In this document: positions 2,435 through 39,477 of the stretch, piece after piece
Layout: each line of letters begins with the position of its first letter
How positions within the stretch are numbered: position 1 is the first letter of the stretch
From: an uncultured Desulfobacteraceae bacterium
Lineage (GTDB): Bacteria; Desulfobacterota; Desulfobacteria; Desulfobacterales; Desulfosalsimonadaceae
DNA length: 42,292 nt
NCBI GenBank assembly: GCA_964481615.1
Contig: CAYZXZ010000002.1
Span: forward strand, 1-42,292
Reading direction: 5' to 3'
Notes under the pieces: generated by a model
The model's database searches: none
Seen by the model: the letters and a program-made list of their open reading frames with translations, nothing else
Told to the model about the DNA's origin: nothing
Made by a program: the position numbers and the translations under genes

Positions 2435-3418
2435 TCAGCGGATCAGGTGAGCGACGCAGTTTCGACCCGCTTCTTTTGCCATATACATGGCCTTGTCGGC
2501 CCGACGGATAAATTCGGTCAGGGAATCCCCGACGGCATACCCGGTAACGCCGATACTCACGGTGACTTTTTCAGGTTCCGGAACGGATAGGAAATTGTTT
2601 TCAATCGTTTCCCGGGTACGTTGCGCCACATTGACGGCTGCCGAACAATCGGTTTCCGGTAGAAGCGCGGTGAATTCCTCCCCTCCGTAACGATAGACCG
2701 AATCCAGGGTCCGCATGCACGAGACGATGAGTTGGGCCGTTTCCCGCAGGACCTTGTCTCCCTCGAGATGGCCGTTTCGATCATTGTATTTCTTGAAATG
2801 ATCGATGTCGATGAGCAGCATGGAAAGAGGGCGGCCATATCGGTTGAACCGGCTGATTTCCGTTTCCAGCTGGTGATAGAAGTGCCGGCTGTTGAACAGT
2901 TTTGTGAGGCCGTCGGTGATGGCGAGTTCCTTGAGTTGTTCGAGCATCCGGTCCCGTTCCCGGGTCAACTCCCGTTCCTTGAGCACCCGCTTTAATCGCA
3001 GCAACAGTTCCTCGAGCTTGAACGGTTTGAAAAGAAAATCATCTGCGCCTTTTCCGATGGCCTCTTCGTAAAAATAATCTTTGGTATAGCCCGTGATGAC
3101 GATGATATCCGTGTCATACCGTTTCTTGATGTATTGCGTCATTTCAAGGCCGTCCATTCCGTTCATGATGATATCGGTGATCACAACGTCGATTTTTTTA
3201 GATTTCAGGATGACAAGAGTCTGTTCGGCGTTTTCGGCGCTGTCAGCGGAAAAACCGGCGAGGCTCAAATATTCGGCGATGGAGCTGCGGATCTCCGGAT
3301 CATCATCAACAATGAGAATGGCGGCCGGCGTCAAGGGTTGTTTGAGGGAATTTGAAAGTGATGAATGCATGCCCGTATTGACATGTAAGAGTTCATATGG
3401 TATTTTTCGTATTTCCAT
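2435..3418 (-). CDS. response regulator receiver + GGDEF diguanylate cyclase
   Basis: REC domain (ILIVDDDPEIR...DVVITDIIMNGMDG...KPF), a coiled linker, then a GGDEF domain with an RYGGEEF active site. The start is uncertain (3418 or ATG 3370). Confidence 0.9.
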   Translation of the reverse strand: MEIRKIPYELLHVNTGMHSSLSNSLKQPLTPAAILIVDDDPEIRSSIAEYLSLAGFSADSAENAEQTLVILKSKKIDVVITDIIMNGMDGLEMTQYIKKRYDTDIIVITGYTKDYFYEEAIGKGADDFLFKPFKLEELLLRLKRVLKERELTRERDRMLEQLKELAITDGLTKLFNSRHFYHQLETEISRFNRYGRPLSMLLIDIDHFKKYNDRNGHLEGDKVLRETAQLIVSCMRTLDSVYRYGGEEFTALLPETDCSAAVNVAQRTRETIENNFLSVPEPEKVTVSIGVTGYAVGDSLTEFIRRADKAMYMAKEAGRNCVAHLIR

Positions 3419-3498
3419 ATAAAAAAGAATCTAACACAAACGGCAAAAAAGTGTCAAATATCTTTTTGCCGTTTTTTTTCAACGACAGATTGGAATTT

Positions 3499-5313
3499 AT
3501 GAAAACTACGCATGTCAAAATGGACCGGATCCGCAATTTCAGCATCATCGCCCATATCGATCACGGCAAATCCACCCTTTCGGATAGGCTGATACAAGCG
3601 ACGGGTGTCGTATCCGAGAGGGATTTCCGGGATCAGATTCTCGACAACATGGATATCGAGCGAGAGAGGGGAATCACCATCAAGAGCCAGACCATATGCC
3701 TTCCCTACACAGCGGAAGACGGGGCGAACTATCACTTAAACCTGATCGATACGCCCGGTCACGTGGATTTCACGTACGAAGTTTCCCGGGCGCTGGCGTC
3801 CTGCGAGGGCGCGCTCCTGCTCATCGATGCCAGTCAGGGCGTTGAGGCCCAGACCATCGCCAACATGTACCTGGCGGTGGATCACAACCTTGAAATCATT
3901 CCCGTCATCAACAAGATCGACCTGCCTTCAGCAGACATCGATATAGTCATGGAACAGATCGCCGAAGATCTCGGCCTGGATCCCGAGACCGCTATTTTAT
4001 GTTCGGCAAAGGAAAATATCGGAATCGACCAGATGCTGGAGGTGATCGTCAATCGTTTTCATCCGCCGTCCGGCGATCCCGACGATCCTCTGAGGGCTCT
4101 TATTTTCGACTCGCATTATGACCCGTATCGTGGGACCATCATTCATGTCCGGGTGTTTGAGGGAACCGTTCGGCCCGGTGATGAAATCCTTTTCATGGCT
4201 ACCAACGCCCGACATGTCGTCGAAGAAGTCGGCATTTTCCAGCTGACCCGCATCCCTCGTGACCGTCTGTCCGCTGGAAGCGTCGGATATGTTATCTCCG
4301 GTATCAAGACCGTAGACGAAACCCGGTGCGGTGATACGGTCACGCTCAAAAACAGGCCCTGCGCCGAACCGCTGCCCGGGTTCAAGGAAACCAAGCCTGT
4401 CGTCTTTTCATCGCTTTATCCCGTTTCGTCGGATGACTACCCGGAACTGGCCGCGGCCCTGGAAAAACTCAAGCTCAATGATGCGTCACTGATCTATGCC
4501 AAGGATTTTTCCACCGCCCTGGGATTCGGTTTCCGTTGCGGATTTCTCGGTCTGCTTCACCTGGAGGTGGTCCAGGAAAGGCTGGAAAGGGAATATGATC
4601 TTTCGCTGATCCTGACGGCCCCATCCGTGGAATACCGGTTGATCCTCAAGAACGGCGAAAACTTGACCATTGACAACCCCGCGGTCTATCCGGATCCCAT
4701 GAAGATTGAAAAGTCCCTTGAGCCTTTCATCAAGGCATCCATCATGATTCCGGACAAGTACATGGGACCGGTGATGAGCCTCTGTCTTGAGCGCCGTGGG
4801 ATCAATACCAATTACCAGTATTTCAGCAGCAGCCGCATGGAAATGATCTTTGAACTGCCCCTGGCCGAAGTGATCTACGATTTTTATGATAAACTCAAAT
4901 CCGTGACCCAGGGCTACGGCTCATTTGACTATGAATTAATCGATTATCGCGAAACCGATCTGAGCAAGGTTGATATCCTGGTCAACGGCGAGCGGGTGGA
5001 TGCCCTGTCCCAGCTGGTTCATCGGGACCGGGCCGTTGAACGGGCCAAGTTCGCCTGCGAGAAACTCAAGGATGAAATCCCCCGTCAGATGTTTAAAATC
5101 GCCATCCAGGGGGCCATCGGCGCGAAAATCATTTCCCGCCAGACCATCTCTCCGTTTCGAAAGGATGTGACCGCCAAATGTTACGGCGGCGACATCACCC
5201 GAAAACGGAAATTGCTGGAAAAACAGAAAAAAGGAAAAAAACGGATGAAAATGGTGGGGGATGTGATGATCCCCCAGTCTGCGTTTTTGTCCGTGTTGAA
5301 GAGCAAGGATTGA
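3499..5313 (+). CDS. lepA: translation elongation factor 4
   Basis: IRNFSIIAHIDHGKSTL, DTPGHVDF and NKIDL GTPase motifs, plus a full-length LepA-like C-terminus. ATG 3499 matches the usual LepA N-terminus. The ORF-track start at 3397 adds a low-complexity extension. Confidence 0.95.
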   Translation: MKTTHVKMDRIRNFSIIAHIDHGKSTLSDRLIQATGVVSERDFRDQILDNMDIERERGITIKSQTICLPYTAEDGANYHLNLIDTPGHVDFTYEVSRALASCEGALLLIDASQGVEAQTIANMYLAVDHNLEIIPVINKIDLPSADIDIVMEQIAEDLGLDPETAILCSAKENIGIDQMLEVIVNRFHPPSGDPDDPLRALIFDSHYDPYRGTIIHVRVFEGTVRPGDEILFMATNARHVVEEVGIFQLTRIPRDRLSAGSVGYVISGIKTVDETRCGDTVTLKNRPCAEPLPGFKETKPVVFSSLYPVSSDDYPELAAALEKLKLNDASLIYAKDFSTALGFGFRCGFLGLLHLEVVQERLEREYDLSLILTAPSVEYRLILKNGENLTIDNPAVYPDPMKIEKSLEPFIKASIMIPDKYMGPVMSLCLERRGINTNYQYFSSSRMEMIFELPLAEVIYDFYDKLKSVTQGYGSFDYELIDYRETDLSKVDILVNGERVDALSQLVHRDRAVERAKFACEKLKDEIPRQMFKIAIQGAIGAKIISRQTISPFRKDVTAKCYGGDITRKRKLLEKQKKGKKRMKMVGDVMIPQSAFLSVLKSKD

Positions 5314-33827: not shown

Positions 33828-34484
33828 ATGATTGACCTGCACGCGCATTCTATTTTCAGCGACGGGGAACTGATCCCCTCAGAGCTGGCCATACGTGCCG
33901 AGGCCCGTGGCCTGACCGCCATCGGCATAACGGATCACGGGGACCTGTCCAACCTTGATTTTATCATTCCAAGAATCGTCTCGGTTACCGAGCAGTTGAA
34001 TCCAGTGATATCCATCCGCATCATACCAGGCATCGAAATCACCCATGTGCCACCTCGGCTTATTAGGGACACCATCATGAAAGCACGGGATCTGGGGGCT
34101 TGCATCGTCATTGTTCACGGGGAAACCATCGCCGAGCCCGTGGCACCCGGCACCAATTCAGCGGCCATTGAGGCGGGGGCCGACATCCTGGCCCATCCGG
34201 GGCTGATCAGTGAGCACGATGTCATGGCGGCACGGGACGCTCAGGTGCTGCTGGAGATTACCGCCCGAAGGGGGCACTGTCTCACTAACGGTCATGTGGC
34301 CCGAATGGCCCGGCAATACGGCGCGAAACTGGTGATCAATACCGATTCCCATAGTCCAGGCGACCTGATCGACGACAAGACTGCCGAATGCATCGTCTGT
34401 GGCGCCGGTCTCGATATAGGCGCTTTTGCACAGATGCAGCAGAACGCTGCAGCGTTGATTGAAAAAAAGTATAAAAAAACTTGA
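33828..34484 (+). CDS. PHP-domain (histidinol-phosphatase-like) metal-dependent phosphoesterase
   Basis: MIDLHAHSIFSDG...GITDHGD...VHGE...NTDSH metal ligands. Confidence 0.8.
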   Translation: MIDLHAHSIFSDGELIPSELAIRAEARGLTAIGITDHGDLSNLDFIIPRIVSVTEQLNPVISIRIIPGIEITHVPPRLIRDTIMKARDLGACIVIVHGETIAEPVAPGTNSAAIEAGADILAHPGLISEHDVMAARDAQVLLEITARRGHCLTNGHVARMARQYGAKLVINTDSHSPGDLIDDKTAECIVCGAGLDIGAFAQMQQNAAALIEKKYKKT

Positions 34485-34510
34485 CATTTGTTCCGGGTTG
34501 GGTCAGATAG
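34481..34510 (+). promoter_or_regulatory. possible promoter of the aro leader transcript
   Basis: A perfect TTGACA (34481-34486) overlaps the PHP gene's stop. The only -10 candidates are weak (GATAGT at a 19-nt spacer, CAGATA at 17 nt). Confidence 0.3.
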
Positions 34511-34562
34511 TCAAGAAATTCAATAGCGACAACCAAAAGAAACAGATGAGACATCATCCGTG

Positions 34563-34652
34563 ATGGAAACTTTTTTAAGCAGACGCAGCTTTTATTACTA
34601 CTGGTATTATCGCTATTGTTGCGCCTGCGCAAAAGGCTCCCCTCCGGTATGA
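34563..34652 (+). CDS. putative aromatic amino-acid leader peptide METFLSRRSFYYYWYYRYCCACAKGSPPV
   Basis: 29 codons, ATG 34563 to TGA 34650-34652. Seven of nine consecutive codons (34590-34616) are Phe/Tyr/Trp. The ORF lies between a candidate promoter and an intrinsic terminator directly upstream of the aro operon. The Shine-Dalgarno sequence is weak. Confidence 0.65.
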   Translation: METFLSRRSFYYYWYYRYCCACAKGSPPV

Positions 34653-34696
34653 GATGATGACATACTGAAAATACGTGAGACCTTAAAGCCGCAGGC
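34623..34696 (+). promoter_or_regulatory. candidate antiterminator helix of the aro attenuator
   Basis: GCCTGCG (34623-34629) pairs with CGCAGGC (34690-34696), which is the terminator's 5' arm. AAGGCTC (34633-34639) pairs with GAG(A)CCTT (34677-34684). GCCTGCG is an exact copy of the terminator's 3' arm (34703-34709). Confidence 0.55.
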
Positions 34697-34718
34697 AAAA
34701 AAGCCTGCGGCTTTTTTT
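34685..34718 (+). terminator. intrinsic terminator (attenuator) 36 nt upstream of the aroA' start
   Basis: AAAGCCGCAGGC-AAAAAA-GCCTGCGGCTTT forms a 12-bp stem and runs into a 7-T tract (34712-34718). Confidence 0.85.
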
Positions 34719-34754
34719 GTTGTTAAATCCCAACATCAACAAAAGGAGAAGACC

Positions 34755-35547
34755 ATGACCATCATCGGCAAACAGATTCGCATGGAACGCATCATGGACC
34801 GCAATACCCGCAAGACCATCATCGTGCCGCTGGATCACGGGGTTTCCGTCGGACCCATTGAAGGTATTTGCGACATCCGTGAAACCGTGGCCCTTGTGGC
34901 CGAGGGCGGCGCTAAGGCAATTGTCGAACACAAAGGACTGGTGGGAGCCGGACATCGGCGCAGCGGCTCGGATATCGGGCTCATCATCCATCTGTCCGCA
35001 TCCACTGCACTGTCGCCGCATCCCCATTCGAAAACGCTTGTCAGCTCGGTGGAAGAGGCCCTGAAGCTGGGTGCGGATGCGGTCTCCATCCATGTGAACA
35101 TCGGCGACGAACAGGAAAAGGATATGCTCAATGATTTCGGACGGGTCAGTTATGAGGCGCGCAACTGGGGCATGCCGCTGCTGGATGTATCCGAGGGGGC
35201 AGAAAATCAGGGATGAATATGATGTGGAAGTAGTTAAGCATGCGGCCCGGGTAGGATGCGAAATGGGCGCTGATATCGTCAAGGTCTCCTACACCGGTTC
35301 GCCGGAAACCTTTCGCCGGGTGGTTGAAGGAAGCACCGTGCCGGTGGTTATTGCAGGCGGGGCAAAGATGGGATCGGATCGCGATATTCTTGAGATGGTT
35401 AGAGGCGCCATGGATGCCGGGGCAGCAGGCGCATCCATCGGCCGAAATGTTTTCCAGCATGTTGACCCTCCTCGTATGGTCAGGGCCATGGCAAAAATCA
35501 TCTTTGAAAACGCCTCGGTGGACGCTGCCCTACAAATACTGGAATAG
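34755..35547 (+). pseudogene. aroA': 2-amino-3,7-dideoxy-D-threo-hept-6-ulosonate synthase (class I aldolase, DhnA/FbaB family), interrupted by a +1 frame change near 35184
   Basis: ORFs 34755-35216 and 35131-35547 are the N- and C-terminal halves of one ~265-aa enzyme. Frame 0 reads ...NWGMPLL then [10 protein letters not shown]-stop. The +1 frame reads [38 protein letters not shown] from ATG 35185. The cause could be a sequencing indel, a real pseudogene or a split gene. Confidence 0.8.
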
Positions 35548-35588
35548 CGGCTCCGCCGCTTCTGGATCTCATCAAGGAGAGCACGGAC

Positions 35589-36581
35589 ATGCGAAAAATT
35601 TGGATTAACGTTGTTCCATGGGACAAGGAGCTTGTAACCACTGCTCTGGAAGGCGGTGCGGACGGCGTGCTGGTTCCTGCCGGATATTCGGAAAAAGTCA
35701 AAGCCCTGGGCCGGATCGACACTATAGCCGAAGATGGGGATATACGGCTCGGGGTGGATGTTGTCACCCGCACCATCGAAAGCGGTCTGGACGAGGACGA
35801 GATCGCCCGGATATCGAAAACCACACCGGTGATTTTGGAATGCACCGACTGGTCGGTCATCCCTCTTGAAAACCTGATCGCCAAAGGCGCCGATGTCATT
35901 GCACGGGTTGGTTCCATGGAAGAAGCGGAAACCGCTTTCGGCATCCTTGAAAAAGGCGTGGACCGTATTCTGCTCTGCACCCGTGACCCGCTGGAGATCA
36001 AAAAAACCCTTGGCCGCCTTAAATCCGATGTTGAGACAATCGTCTTAGAGATAGCTGAAATCACCGATATTCGTCCGGCGGGCATGGGAGACCGGGTCTG
36101 CGTGGACACCTGCACCCACATGGAAAAAGGGGAGGGGATGCTGGTGGGCAACAGCAGCGGGGCACTGTTTTTGGTGCATGCCGAAAGCGTGGTCAATCCC
36201 TATGTTTCGCCACGGCCGTTCCGGGTTAATGCCGGACCGGTGCATGCCTATACCCGGGTTCCGGGTAACAAAACCCGTTACCTTTCCGAACTGGTGGCTG
36301 GTGATCCGGTGCTGATCACCGATTACTCGGGACGATCACATGTGGGAACGGTGGGCCGGGTCAAGATTGAAAAACGGCCTTTGCTCCTGGTCCGGGCAAA
36401 AGCTGGCGGGCAAGAGATCACCGCCATTGTCCAGAACGCCGAAACCATCCGCCTGACCGATCCTGACGGAAATCCGGTCTCTGTCGTTGAGTTAAAACCG
36501 GGCGACAGCGTACTGGTGGCGCTGGAATCCACCGGCCGGCATTTCGGCATAAAAATAGACGAAACCATCAGGGAAAAATAA
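35589..36581 (+). CDS. aroB': 3-dehydroquinate synthase II (archaeal-type)
   Basis: MRKIWINVVPWDKELVTTALEGGADGVLVP..., ~330 aa, typical of the DHQS-II family. AAGGAGAG Shine-Dalgarno sequence. Confidence 0.85.
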   Translation: MRKIWINVVPWDKELVTTALEGGADGVLVPAGYSEKVKALGRIDTIAEDGDIRLGVDVVTRTIESGLDEDEIARISKTTPVILECTDWSVIPLENLIAKGADVIARVGSMEEAETAFGILEKGVDRILLCTRDPLEIKKTLGRLKSDVETIVLEIAEITDIRPAGMGDRVCVDTCTHMEKGEGMLVGNSSGALFLVHAESVVNPYVSPRPFRVNAGPVHAYTRVPGNKTRYLSELVAGDPVLITDYSGRSHVGTVGRVKIEKRPLLLVRAKAGGQEITAIVQNAETIRLTDPDGNPVSVVELKPGDSVLVALESTGRHFGIKIDETIREK

Positions 36582-36632
36582 TGAACATTACTGCCGCTAC
36601 GCATCCTTTCGGGTAAAGGAGACAGGATCGCC

Positions 36633-37889
36633 ATGATGGAAATCATTCCCCGGACACTGACCGACAATATTGTCCGTGTTCCCGGGTCTAAAAGCTATAC
36701 CCATCGGGTCTGCATGGCCGCTGCCCTGTCCGATGGCCCCTGCCGCGTGTTCGGAGCCTTAGACAGCGAAGACACCCGGCTGACCCTTTCCGCACTGGAA
36801 AGCATGGGCATTATTGTCGACCGCGCATCGGACGTGATCCGGATCACAGGCGAAAAAGGGACATTTGCTCCCTGCGATCATCCGATCCACCTGGGAAACT
36901 CGGGGACATCCATGCGCCTGTTAACGGGCCTTGCGGCCCTGGGCGCCGGCGAATATCTTTTGACCGGATCGGCCCGCATGCAGGAGCGGCCCATCCATGA
37001 TCTGCTGGCGGCCCTGCAGAAACTCGGAGTTTTTGTTGCGTCCGTCAACAACACCGGCTGCCCGCCGATCCGCATCACCGGCGGAACCATCACCCGGACC
37101 CGAACCCAAATCGATTGCAGCACCAGCAGCCAGTATCTTTCCGCGCTTCTTCTGATCGCGCCCTGCACCTCAGGCGGCCTTGAGATCGAAGTGACCGGCG
37201 GGCCGGTCTCCAAGCCTTATATTGATATGACGTTAGATATTATGGAACGGTTCGGGATCATTTTTTCACGTCAGGGATATACCGGCTTTCATATACCGGG
37301 ATCTCAAGTCTACCGTTCCGGTGATTATATCGTGGAACCCGATGCCTCCCAGGCCGGCTATTTCTGGGCCGCGGCCGCGGTCACCGGTTCCCGGGTCAAG
37401 GTTCCCGGGATTACAAAGATATCTCGACAGGGGGATGTCCGTTTTACCGAGGTCCTGGCCGCGATGGGATGCCGGGTAGAGCACCATGCCGACGGAATTT
37501 CCGTTATCGGCGGGCCTTTGTCGGCCGTCACCATCGACATGGCCGACATGCCCGATCTCGTACCCACACTTGCGGTGATTGCCGCCTTTGCCCGGGGCAC
37601 CACCGTGATTCAAAATGTGGCGCATCTTCGGGCAAAAGAAAGCGACCGGCTCGAAGCGGTAAAAACCGAACTTCGAAAAATGGGGATCGACGCTAAGACT
37701 ACGGACACCGGCATCGCGGTGACCGGAGGACCGGTTCACGGGGCCCGGATCAAAACCTATGATGATCACCGGATCGCAATGTGTTTTTCAGTAGCGGGCC
37801 TGGTGGTGTCCAACGTCATGATCGAAAATGAGGACTGCGTGGCCAAGTCCTTTCCCGGATTTTTCAATGTATTAAACGCACTGTCATAG
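36633..37889 (+). CDS. aroA: 3-phosphoshikimate 1-carboxyvinyltransferase (EPSP synthase)
   Basis: VPGSKSYTHR...LGNSGTSMRLLTG...DHRIAM. Confidence 0.95.
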   Translation: MMEIIPRTLTDNIVRVPGSKSYTHRVCMAAALSDGPCRVFGALDSEDTRLTLSALESMGIIVDRASDVIRITGEKGTFAPCDHPIHLGNSGTSMRLLTGLAALGAGEYLLTGSARMQERPIHDLLAALQKLGVFVASVNNTGCPPIRITGGTITRTRTQIDCSTSSQYLSALLLIAPCTSGGLEIEVTGGPVSKPYIDMTLDIMERFGIIFSRQGYTGFHIPGSQVYRSGDYIVEPDASQAGYFWAAAAVTGSRVKVPGITKISRQGDVRFTEVLAAMGCRVEHHADGISVIGGPLSAVTIDMADMPDLVPTLAVIAAFARGTTVIQNVAHLRAKESDRLEAVKTELRKMGIDAKTTDTGIAVTGGPVHGARIKTYDDHRIAMCFSVAGLVVSNVMIENEDCVAKSFPGFFNVLNALS

Positions 37890-37901
37890 CGGAGAAGAGA
37901 T

Positions 37902-38444
37902 ATGAATGTCTTTCTGATCGGATACCGTTGCACGGGCAAGACGACCGTTGGCCGGCGCCTGTCCCATCTGTTGCAGTGGCAATTTATGGATTCTGATGTT
38001 ATTCTCATGGCCAAGCACGGCATGACCGTTGCCGACATGGTCTCCCGGCTCGGCTGGGACGAATTTAGATCCAGGGAAAAAACCGTGATCAGCGAACTGG
38101 GAAAAATGGATCGGATCATCGTGGCCACGGGGGGCGGCGTGGTGCTGGATCCGGAAAATGTGGCCTGCATGAAAAAAAACGGGCATGTGGTGATCTGGCT
38201 GACCGCGAAAACCGAGACCATCCTTGCACGGATGGGGCAGGATCCTGAGACAAAACAACTCCGTCCGGCGCTTACCGATCGTCCGCAGGAAGCGGAAATC
38301 GCGGAAACCCTTTCCCAGCGGACACCCCTTTACCATGCGGCAATGGATATGCGGATCGCAACGGACAATTTTGACACAGACCAGATCTGTCGCAAAATTC
38401 TAACTCGATTAAGGAAATCATATGCCGGGAAATTCATTCGGTAA
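37902..38444 (+). CDS. aroK: shikimate kinase
   Basis: Walker [14 protein letters not shown]...ATGGG. Confidence 0.9.
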
Positions 38445-39477
38445 ACTGTTTCGCATCACCACCTGGGGCGAATCCCACGGGCCTGCCGTAGGCGTGGTCA
38501 TTGACGGCTGTCCACCCGGAATCCCCCTTGAAGCCGCCGACATCCAGACCATGCTCGACCGCCGACGACCGGGCAAGACCGTCACCAGCACGACGCGAAG
38601 GGAAAAGGACAGGGCGATCCTTCTATCCGGTGTTTTTGAGAGCAAAACCACGGGCACGCCCATTGCCGTCATGGTGGAAAACAAAGATGCGGATTCATCC
38701 GCGTATCAACCTTTTGCCGAATTGTTTCGGCCGGGACACGCGGATATCACCTACCAGGCCAAATACGGGATCCGGGACTGGCGGGGCGGGGGCAGGGCAT
38801 CGGCCCGGGAAACCGTGGGCCGTGTTGCGGCCGGAGCCGTGGCCCGAAAGATCCTGTTAAAAGAAGGGATCGACATTGTCGCCTATACCCGGTCTCTCGG
38901 GCGTGTTGCCGCCGCGACCTTTGACCGCGGCGCCATTGACCGCAACCTCTTCGGGACCCCGGATATGGATGCGGCCGCATATATGGAAACGGAAGCGGTC
39001 GAAATCCGGAAAATTGGCGATTCCCTAGGCGGTATCGTGGAGGTCCTAGCCTCGGGGGTTCCGGCGGGCCTTGGAGAGCCAGTGTTTGACAAACTGGACG
39101 CGGACCTGGCAAAGGCATTAATGAGCATCGGCGCGGTCAAGGGCATCGAAATCGGGTCCGGGTTTCAGGCAGCGGCCATGACCGGTTCCCGACACAATGA
39201 CCCGATCCTGCCGGACGGGTTTGCCACCAATAACAGCGGCGGGATACTGGGCGGTATTTCCAGCGGCGGCGACATCCTGGTCCGGGTGGCGGTCAAACCC
39301 ATCCCTTCTATCGCCATTGAACAGGAGACCATCGATGTCCACGGCAATCCGCGCAAGATCACCGTCACGGGCCGCCACGACATATCCGCCATCCCCCGGA
39401 TCAACGTGGTGTGCGAGGCAATGGTCTGCCTGGTGCTGGCGGATCACCTGCTCCGCCAGCGTGCCATCCGGGGTTAA
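38422..39477 (+). CDS. aroC: chorismate synthase
   Basis: [26 protein letters not shown]...RPGHAD...GRHD. The start overlaps the aroK 3' end by 23 nt. Confidence 0.95.

Follow-up and report, generated by a model that had tools for sequence, protein, structure and literature searches.

RESULTS

A leader ORF and an intrinsic terminator precede the aroA' operon

The window analyzed here is a 42,292-nucleotide stretch of contig CAYZXZ010000002.1, from an uncultured Desulfobacteraceae bacterium. Its plus strand carries the operon aroA'-aroB'-aroA-aroK-aroC, which opens with the genes for ADH synthase and 3-dehydroquinate synthase II (DHQS-II). Between an upstream PHP-domain gene and aroA' lie a -35-like box, a short open reading frame (ORF) rich in aromatic codons, and an intrinsic terminator, T1 (Table 1). 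An earlier note, made from the sequence alone, had read this region as an aromatic amino-acid attenuator in which an antiterminator (helix 2:3) and a terminator (helix 3:4) are mutually exclusive, and this core reading is supported by conservation, covariation, and constrained folds. The element is very probably a ribosome-mediated leader-peptide transcription attenuator that senses the supply of charged aromatic tRNAs and controls the aroA' operon.

TABLE 1 Features of the putative attenuator and of the operon downstream of it in the window
Feature	Position	Strand	Description
-35-like TTGACA box	34482..34487	+	Putative leader promoter; overlaps stop codon of upstream PHP-domain gene
Leader ORF	34563..34652	+	ATG 34563 to TGA 34650-52; 29 codons plus stop; product METFLSRRSFYYYWYYRYCCACAKGSPPV
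Segment 1	34579..34589	+	GCAGACGCAGC; 5' arm of 1:2 anti-antiterminator/pause hairpin; paired with 34618-34628 in the minimum free energy (MFE) fold
Regulatory codon run	34590..34616	+	TTT TAT TAC TAC TGG TAT TAT CGC TAT = F Y Y Y W Y Y R Y, codons 10-18
Segment 2	34618..34640	+	34618-28 pairs with segment 1; antiterminator pairing to segment 3 by 34623-30 and 34633-40
Small hairpin	34645..34667	+	CGGTATG-(9 nt)-CATACTG; 7 bp, 34645-51 with 34661-67; holds leader stop codon; nested in antiterminator
Segment 3	34675..34696	+	Partner of segment 2; 34685-96 is also the terminator 5' arm
Intrinsic terminator T1	34685..34718	+	12-bp stem (8 G-C pairs), 6-nt loop, T7; -22.9 kcal/mol
aroA' Shine-Dalgarno and ATG	34744..34757	+	Strong AGGAG at 34744-48
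Operon under predicted control	34755..39477	+	aroA'-aroB'-aroA-aroK-aroC; Pfam scan
aroA' (ADH synthase, DeoC-family aldolase)	ORFs 34755-35216 and 35131-35547	+	Split by 5-nt deletion; Pfam
aroB' (3-dehydroquinate synthase II)	35589-36581	+	Pfam
EPSP synthase	36633-37889	+	Pfam
Shikimate kinase	37902-38444	+	Pfam
Chorismate synthase	38422-39477	+	Pfam

The 29-codon, aromatic-rich ORF described in the earlier note was confirmed; an alternative leader start is the GTG at 34560. Aromatic codons fill 8 of the 9 leader positions from 10 to 18. Based on the 8.3% of aromatic codons in the plus-strand frames of the window, approximately 0.002 such 8-of-9 runs are expected by chance in six frames and 42 kb, and the leader run is the sole place in the window to attain this density. 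A second aromatic-looking stretch, at 3389, was dismissed: it runs opposite to the start of a response-regulator gene and lacks an ORF start.

The leader ORF had never been annotated by gene callers at the loci we examined. Ten plausible versions of the leader ORFs, as a gene caller might predict them, had no exact match in a protein collection, and Pfam and NCBIfam profile scans of seven leader peptides gave no relevant match at an E value of ≤10. As the earlier note had cautioned, a 5-codon mini-ORF (MRHHP, 34546-34563) is present and overlaps the leader start as TGATG. We rejected it as part of the device because it is a by-product of a 1-nt deletion found only in the window: compared with its nearest relatives the window lacks one G (CCGGTG to CCGTG), which creates MRHHP, and in those relatives the stretch shares the reading frame of the leader (GTG CGA CAT CAT CCG GTG ATG).

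The RNA can form mutually exclusive terminator and antiterminator helices

The terminator had been described with a 12-bp stem and T7 run ending 36 nt before the aroA' ATG, and we found it so. Its arms are AAAGCCGCAGGC (34685-34696) and GCCTGCGGCTTT (34703-34714), its T7 run spans 34712-34718, and a consensus scan returned it as one strong intrinsic-terminator-like site on the plus strand. No promoter-like site lies in the 36 nt between the T7 run and the ATG at 34755.

The repeat and the pairing on which the earlier note had built its antiterminator are likewise in place. The heptamer GCCTGCG occurs at 34623-29, where segment 2 overlaps it, and again at 34703-09; the upstream copy is complementary to the terminator 5' arm CGCAGGC (34690-96), and AAGGCTC (34633-39) stands opposite GAG(A)CCTT (34677-84). 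We also identified a helix that was absent from that note, 1:2, in which 34579-82 and 34584-89 (GCAG.CGCAGC) pair with 34618-23 and 34625-28 (GUUGCG.CUGC), enclosing the aromatic run in its loop.

We then ran the fold of 34540-34725 that had been proposed as a check. The free RNA has a folding energy of -59.2 kcal/mol, compared with an average of -41.5 for shuffled sequences (z = -4.1; 0 of 200 shuffles as stable), and it folds into 1:2 plus the terminator. The antiterminator appeared only with a ribosome on the Tyr run: for nascent RNA ending at 34702 in which a ribosome footprint covered a Tyr codon, the MFE structure was the 2:3 antiterminator, with 34623-30 paired to 34688-96 and 34633-40 to 34675-84 around the small hairpin. 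When the same nascent RNA was folded without the ribosome, 1:2 formed and segment 3 was left free for the terminator.

The leader is conserved in Desulfobacterales in composition and at the RNA level

Genome loci were collected by an aroB' protein scan with one genome per species, which gave 43 loci, and the aroA' start was placed by tblastn in 37 of these. An ORF of 23 to 31 codons with 7 to 12 aromatic residues, followed by one or more terminator hairpins, was present at 32 of the 34 Desulfobacterales/Desulfobacteria loci with a located aroA' start (leader peptides include MNRTAGKNFNFWYFSYYYFSKGLPVRK, MVHNKSGKYYFYYWYFFNTGRPGVR, and MIRFFSAFYYFYYWYHIGVPRHALNHTHL). All 32 carriers are Desulfobacterales isolates or metagenome-assembled genomes, among them Desulfoluna, Desulfonema, "Desulfobacterium" N47, and Eth-SRB2. 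We found no aromatic leader upstream of aroA' in two more distant Desulfobacteria loci (L032 and L033) or in the archaeal loci. Gene order upstream differs from locus to locus, while the leader remains joined to aroA'. Of 33 loci (the window and the 32 carriers), 27 have an exact TTGACA at 38 to 119 nt before the leader start, usually preceded by an A-tract; the usual form of the conserved box is an A-tract plus CTTGACAT.

Across these 33 sequences the leader averages 27 codons, with 4.0 Phe, 4.8 Tyr, and 0.9 Trp, and 29 leaders have exactly one Trp codon. The earlier description of the leader as Tyr dominated thus holds for the window clade (6 Tyr, 1 to 2 Phe, 1 Trp) and not for the family, which mixes Phe and Tyr with usually one Trp. 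Changes inside the aromatic run stay aromatic (F to Y or the reverse). How many F, Y, and W residues a peptide has, and in what order, varies freely, so that the peptides are conserved in composition only, plus the tripeptide GLP, the sole conserved non-aromatic motif. By its pattern of conservation GLP is an RNA constraint and not a peptide constraint, because its DNA, GGTCTGCCTG, is segment 2 and is fixed even at third codon positions.

Seven close-relative contigs (aroB' 88 to 96% identical) keep the window's leader architecture. In the 2:3 extension, an A-U pair in the window and L044-46 (AAGGCTC/GAGACCTT) is exchanged for G-C in L001 and L047-50 (AGGGCTC/GAGACCC). In L044-46, segments 1 and 2 carry changes from A-U to G.U and from G.U to G-C, and the terminator has an A.C mismatch where the antiterminator has a perfect U-A; Desulfoluna shows two G-C to A-U double changes in 2:3. 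The stems of the small hairpin are invariant and its loop alone varies in the 10 window-clade sequences, and L025 retains this hairpin despite a moved stop codon. The comparison of upstream regions that the earlier note had suggested therefore recovers both the aromatic runs and compensatory changes, in the 32 loci and the seven close relatives. A chance origin of the aromatic run, the fold, and their conservation is excluded, because only about 0.002 such runs are expected, the fold is more stable than all 200 shuffles, and the features recur in dozens of related loci.

To quantify the helices we used alignment A1, a MAFFT alignment of the 33 sequences, with a slide control in which the pairing partner was moved by 1 to 3 columns; helices other than T1 were specified by hand on the alignment. 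Helices 1:2, 2:3, and 3:4 are paired in 78 to 92% of cells, compared with at most 57% when slid. The terminator state, comprising 1:2, 3:4, and a second terminator (5:6), is paired in 87.0% of cells (33 to 57% when slid) with a covariation of 0.217 (at most 0.126 when slid), and 19 of its pairs are changed on both sides, a result that no shuffle equals. Within it, 1:2 is 78% paired in the family, and both partners have changed at 5 of its pairs. For the antiterminator 2:3 on A1, 81.8% of cells are paired (approximately 82 to 84%), against at most 54% when slid, and its covariation is 0.220 against at most 0.063 (about 0.21 to 0.22 against at most 0.07). Its 12-bp helix is 87.7% paired among 30 main-group sequences.

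RNAalifold alone on A1 recovered only the T1 stem, with compensatory changes at five pairs across the 33 sequences; A1 aligns the window clade wrongly at segment 2, and five sequences lack the second terminator (T2). In the Desulfonema/N47 and Desulfoluna clades, where we assigned T1 by reading the alignment, it has a conserved A.C mismatch or long loops.

A covariance model (R1) was built on the 30 main-group sequences alone, so that neither the window nor any of its clade contributed to it. The sole significant match of R1 in the 42-kb window was at 34569-34722 on the plus strand (42.8 bits; rough E value, 2.6e-5). R1 scored the window-clade relatives at 39 to 50 bits and gave no match on L032, L033, L035-43, or loci without an aromatic leader from the DNA pattern search described below. 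In the R1 alignment the 1:2 helix of the window clade is in a different register, which makes the window element a divergent member of the family. An Rfam cmscan of 34000-35200 at an E value of ≤10 returned no leader family (Trp_leader, Phe_leader, His_leader, Leu_leader, or Thr_leader) and no T-box or other riboswitch; the matches there were unrelated small RNA (sRNA) or terminator-like models, with E values above 0.5 and far below gathering scores.

The alternative helices are by themselves silent on what flips them, and the switch might be real with another trigger, such as TnaC-like nascent-peptide arrest, a TRAP-like RNA-binding protein, or direct binding of a ligand or tRNA by the RNA. 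We consider this very unlikely. The peptides have their aromatic composition in common and no fixed arrest motif, no T-box or riboswitch model matched, and reading the leader sequence revealed no repeated TRAP-type (G/U)AG triplets. Moreover, the aromatic run always lies between segments 1 and 2 in the family, where a stalled ribosome would free segment 2.

The leader also precedes other common-pathway genes

We searched metagenome contigs with the DNA pattern TGGTAYTWY-N(6-36)-GGTCTGCCTG, which is unspecific and yields mostly chance matches. Judged by ORF content and by R1, which scored them at 39 to 113 bits, 7 of the 120 returned stretches contain true leaders. The leader is followed by aroA' in L067 and L084, by a class I-family DAHP synthase gene in L081 and L170, by a gene for a DAHP synthase with a ferredoxin-like regulatory domain in L155, and by a shikimate-kinase/dehydroquinate-synthase-like (aroK-aroB) ORF in L101; the contig of L125 ends before the downstream gene. 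The leader thus appears to travel with common-pathway aromatic genes, partly non-homologous, and not to be tied to the aroA'/aroB' route. Such different downstream genes (aroA', DAHP synthase, and aroK-aroB) are as predicted for a sensor of aromatic amino-acid supply.

These gene orders also bear on a more ordinary account of the locus, in which the hairpin terminates the upstream PHP-domain gene or a separate small-peptide gene, aroA' has its own promoter, and the aromatic ORF is due to chance or encodes an independently functional hydrophobic peptide. T1 does also read as a generic intrinsic terminator, and the only Rfam matches are to generic terminator-containing sRNA models; the weak Shine-Dalgarno sequence of the leader and the failure of gene callers to call it point the same way. 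We nevertheless consider this account extremely improbable. It is opposed by the lack of a promoter-like site between the T-run and aroA' and by the conserved TTGACA box, which is located between the stop codon of the PHP-domain gene and the leader. Even where another gene lies upstream, aroA', DAHP synthase, or aroK-aroB keeps the leader and terminator; compensatory changes accompany the conservation of the 2:3 pairing, and the peptide is conserved in composition only, apart from the nucleotide-level conservation at GLP.

Most relatives carry two tandem terminators

In 28 of the 33 sequences, T2 directly follows T1; the simple one-terminator form is found in the window, L001, L025, L004, and L024. 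T1 has a T-run in 29 sequences, and the remaining four, Desulfoluna (L026-28) and L030, have T2. In these four the first hairpin lacks a T-run, so that only a relay to T2 can terminate. Segment 4 (the T1 3' arm) is complementary to segment 5 (the T2 5' arm) in 94.8% of cells, and in L010, L011/14, and L015, segment 5 matches segment 4 perfectly while its own stem has a mismatch or bulge. These complementarities suggest that most relatives, unlike the window, have a five-helix relay in which 2:3 and 4:5 would disable both terminators.

The tandem arrangement can be seen, for example, at approximately 3036-3160 of L016 (set L002-L039). Separately, L008, L012, L013, and L021 contain an extra 120 to 170 nt of unrelated sequence between T2 and the aroA' Shine-Dalgarno sequence; the inserts of L008 and L012 are similar to each other and may be a small mobile or repeat element.

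A model for attenuation at aroA' and the observations that weigh against it

The locus comprises a leader ORF, a terminator before the first gene, a mutually exclusive and covarying antiterminator, and a competing 1:2 helix. We base the attenuator reading on the conserved aromatic ORF, the covarying terminator and antiterminator, the constrained folds, and the occurrence of the same leader at other shikimate-pathway genes.

In the model that we propose, transcription would start at the promoter with the -35 box at 34482-87 and enter the leader, and a ribosome would translate the 29 codons. If Tyr-, Phe-, or Trp-tRNA is scarce, the ribosome would stall in FYYYWYYRY, covering segment 1 and keeping 1:2 open. 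Segment 2 (34623-40) would then pair with segment 3 once the latter is made, sequestering the terminator 5' arm, and RNA polymerase would read through into aroA'. If amino acids are plentiful, the ribosome would pass segment 2, reach the stop codon, and leave; segment 2 would be occluded and then re-paired with segment 1, segments 3 and 4 would form the 12-bp terminator, and transcription would end at the T7 run. The amino-acid response, the coupling of ribosome and polymerase, and a 3' end at approximately 34718 are what we infer from the sequence.

Several observations weigh against this reading or parts of it. With the full transcript at equilibrium, the terminator was favored even with a stalled ribosome. 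Because the terminator always wins thermodynamically when the whole transcript is present, the folding models imply that the decision must be kinetic and co-transcriptional, a step that we infer; co-transcriptional kinetics decide readthrough in every classical attenuator. In addition, the leader stop codon lies 20 nt past the GCCTGCG core in the window, compared with 5 to 14 nt in most relatives. With a ribosome at the stop codon, the AAGGCTC extension would be covered and the core left exposed, and occlusion of segment 2 in the replete state would therefore rely on a transiting ribosome and a re-formed 1:2. Of the ribosome logic in the earlier note, the part in which a stall on the Tyr run frees segment 2 agrees with the constrained fold, while the part in which a ribosome at the stop codon occludes it does not extend to the GCCTGCG core.

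Initiation signals are a further weak point. The leader Shine-Dalgarno sequence is weak in the window clade, a caveat that had been raised before; many relatives have AAGGA 6 to 8 nt before the leader ATG. A candidate -10 box in the window, GATAGT at a 19-nt spacing, is not convincingly placed, and we could not identify a consistently spaced -10 hexamer upstream of the leaders in the 33 loci. A consensus scan for a plus-strand promoter in this region of the window also returned no site. Furthermore, the first gene of the operon may be defective in the window, since aroA' is frameshifted (see below). Finally, the aroR leader of Corynebacterium glutamicum, as reported in PMC11802643, responded to Phe limitation and not to Tyr limitation, which bears on which amino acid counts.

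A frameshift in aroA' is confined to the window

The window aroA' has a frameshifting 5-nt deletion: GCCAT is missing at approximately 35184 (35180-35190), between CTGCTG and GATGTAT. The gene is intact, at 265 amino acids, in 9 of the 9 closest relatives, and the deletion is the sole coding indel in a 5.7-kb alignment to the 93%-identical contig L045. It is either an assembly error or the mark of a recent pseudogene. If it is real, the operon would be headed by a pseudogene and the attenuator could be a relic in this genome, as the restriction of the deletion to the window and its standing as the only coding indel might be taken to indicate. We give this possibility almost no credence. Both the remaining genes of the operon and all elements of the attenuator are intact and apparently under constraint, a lone indel in one assembly could reflect a consensus error, and the genes behind aroA' would still depend on the attenuator.

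Behind the attenuator, operon content is fluid, judging from the gene orders compared. In relatives at 88 to 90% aroB' identity (L047-L049), a shikimate dehydrogenase gene lies between aroB' and the EPSP synthase gene; it is absent from this position (36581-36633) in the window and in the 96%-identical relatives. In main-group loci, pheA follows aroB'.

A terminator-like hairpin elsewhere in the window

In a divergent intergenic region before an elongation-factor-4 (lepA-like) gene, the plus strand contains a terminator-like hairpin at 3441-3480, ACGGCAAAAAAG ... CTTTTTGCCG plus T8, with no plus-strand gene upstream for it to terminate. The real start of the lepA-like gene is probably the ATG at 3500. 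A 26-nt palindrome (approximately 3393-3418) precedes this hairpin, at the start of an opposite-strand response-regulator/diguanylate-cyclase-like gene.

DISCUSSION

The enterobacterial leaders trpL, pheL, pheM, hisL, thrL, leuL, and ilvL share with the window element an ORF of regulating codons, a 1:2 pause or anti-antiterminator helix, and a 2:3 antiterminator whose 3' half is also part of the 3:4 terminator, just ahead of the first biosynthetic gene. The element in the window accordingly belongs to an uncurated family within the classical ribosome-mediated attenuators, and its mechanism is the textbook one. A single leader can sense several amino acids, as in the thr (Thr and Ile) and ilvGMEDA (Leu, Val, and Ile) operons; we know of no classical leader for Tyr in Escherichia coli. 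Unlike the enterobacterial leaders, the element has no similarity to an Rfam covariance model, combines Tyr, Phe, and Trp codons, occurs in a Desulfobacterales host, and is positioned to control the common chorismate pathway and not a terminal branch.

The relay in the relatives (1:2, 3:4, and 5:6 against 2:3 and 4:5) resembles the his leader of Salmonella and E. coli (A:B, C:D, and E:F against B:C and D:E). It differs from the his leader in that 3:4 and 5:6 usually both have T-runs, making two tandem controlled terminators, with only the second in Desulfoluna and L030. The window itself, in contrast to the his leader, has the simple four-segment form.

Closer precedents exist for aromatic leaders ahead of shikimate-entry genes. 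In C. glutamicum, the Phe-Tyr-Phe leader aroR attenuates the aroF (DAHP synthase) operon, and ribosome stalling raises transcription (Neshat et al. 2014, as cited in PMC11802643). Like the window element, aroR places mixed aromatic codons upstream of a shikimate-entry gene; compared by description, it differs in its actinobacterial host, its DAHP synthase target, and its three aromatic codons, against 7 to 12 here. In Acholeplasma, the candidate uORFC-13-1 contains Phe codons, is followed by an intrinsic terminator, and occurs exclusively upstream of the DAHP synthase gene aroF (PMC8632094). It is Phe only, with no Tyr or Trp codons described, belongs to another phylum, and was not among the Rfam matches for the window.

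In a sulfate reducer, Table 7 of Song et al. (2005) lists a putative attenuator, taken from the Merino website, ahead of the Desulfovibrio vulgaris aroA' > aroB' > pheA > aroF > tyrA > trp supraoperon (PMC1173090). As in the window, a predicted terminator/antiterminator stands before the same two unusual genes. That element belongs to the Desulfovibrionales and, compared by description, is a structure prediction, with no leader peptide or effector described in that paper. Gurvich et al. stated that Desulfobacterium autotrophicum "potentially" uses a pheL (PMC3082878). In light of aroR, the Acholeplasma uORF, and the D. vulgaris prediction of 2005, the novelty claimed in the earlier note, that it knew of no Tyr-dominated leader for common-pathway genes and of none for an ADH-synthase/DHQS-II operon, was overstated. 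The literature searched contains no description of the Tyr/Phe/Trp leader family, its helices, or its distribution.

Taking the loci together, we lean, with considerable reserve, toward a broader interpretation. The element may represent an uncatalogued, multivalent (Phe plus Tyr plus Trp) attenuator family that is widespread in Desulfobacterales and acts as the principal transcriptional regulator of entry into the aromatic biosynthetic pathway. It would be attached to entry genes that are non-homologous or differently organized (ADH synthase/DHQS-II, class I-alpha-like and I-beta DAHP synthases, and aroK-aroB), mostly with two tandem terminators operating through a five-helix relay.

The understanding of attenuation itself is unchanged by these findings. 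They would enlarge the small set of attenuator types by a Tyr-rich, three-amino-acid leader, and a covariance model would let annotators mark the element together with a tiny ORF that is missed by gene callers, Rfam, Pfam, and NCBIfam. For sulfate reducers, where the literature searched gave only the computational prediction of 2005, the element would provide a testable regulator for the aspartate-semialdehyde route into the shikimate pathway.

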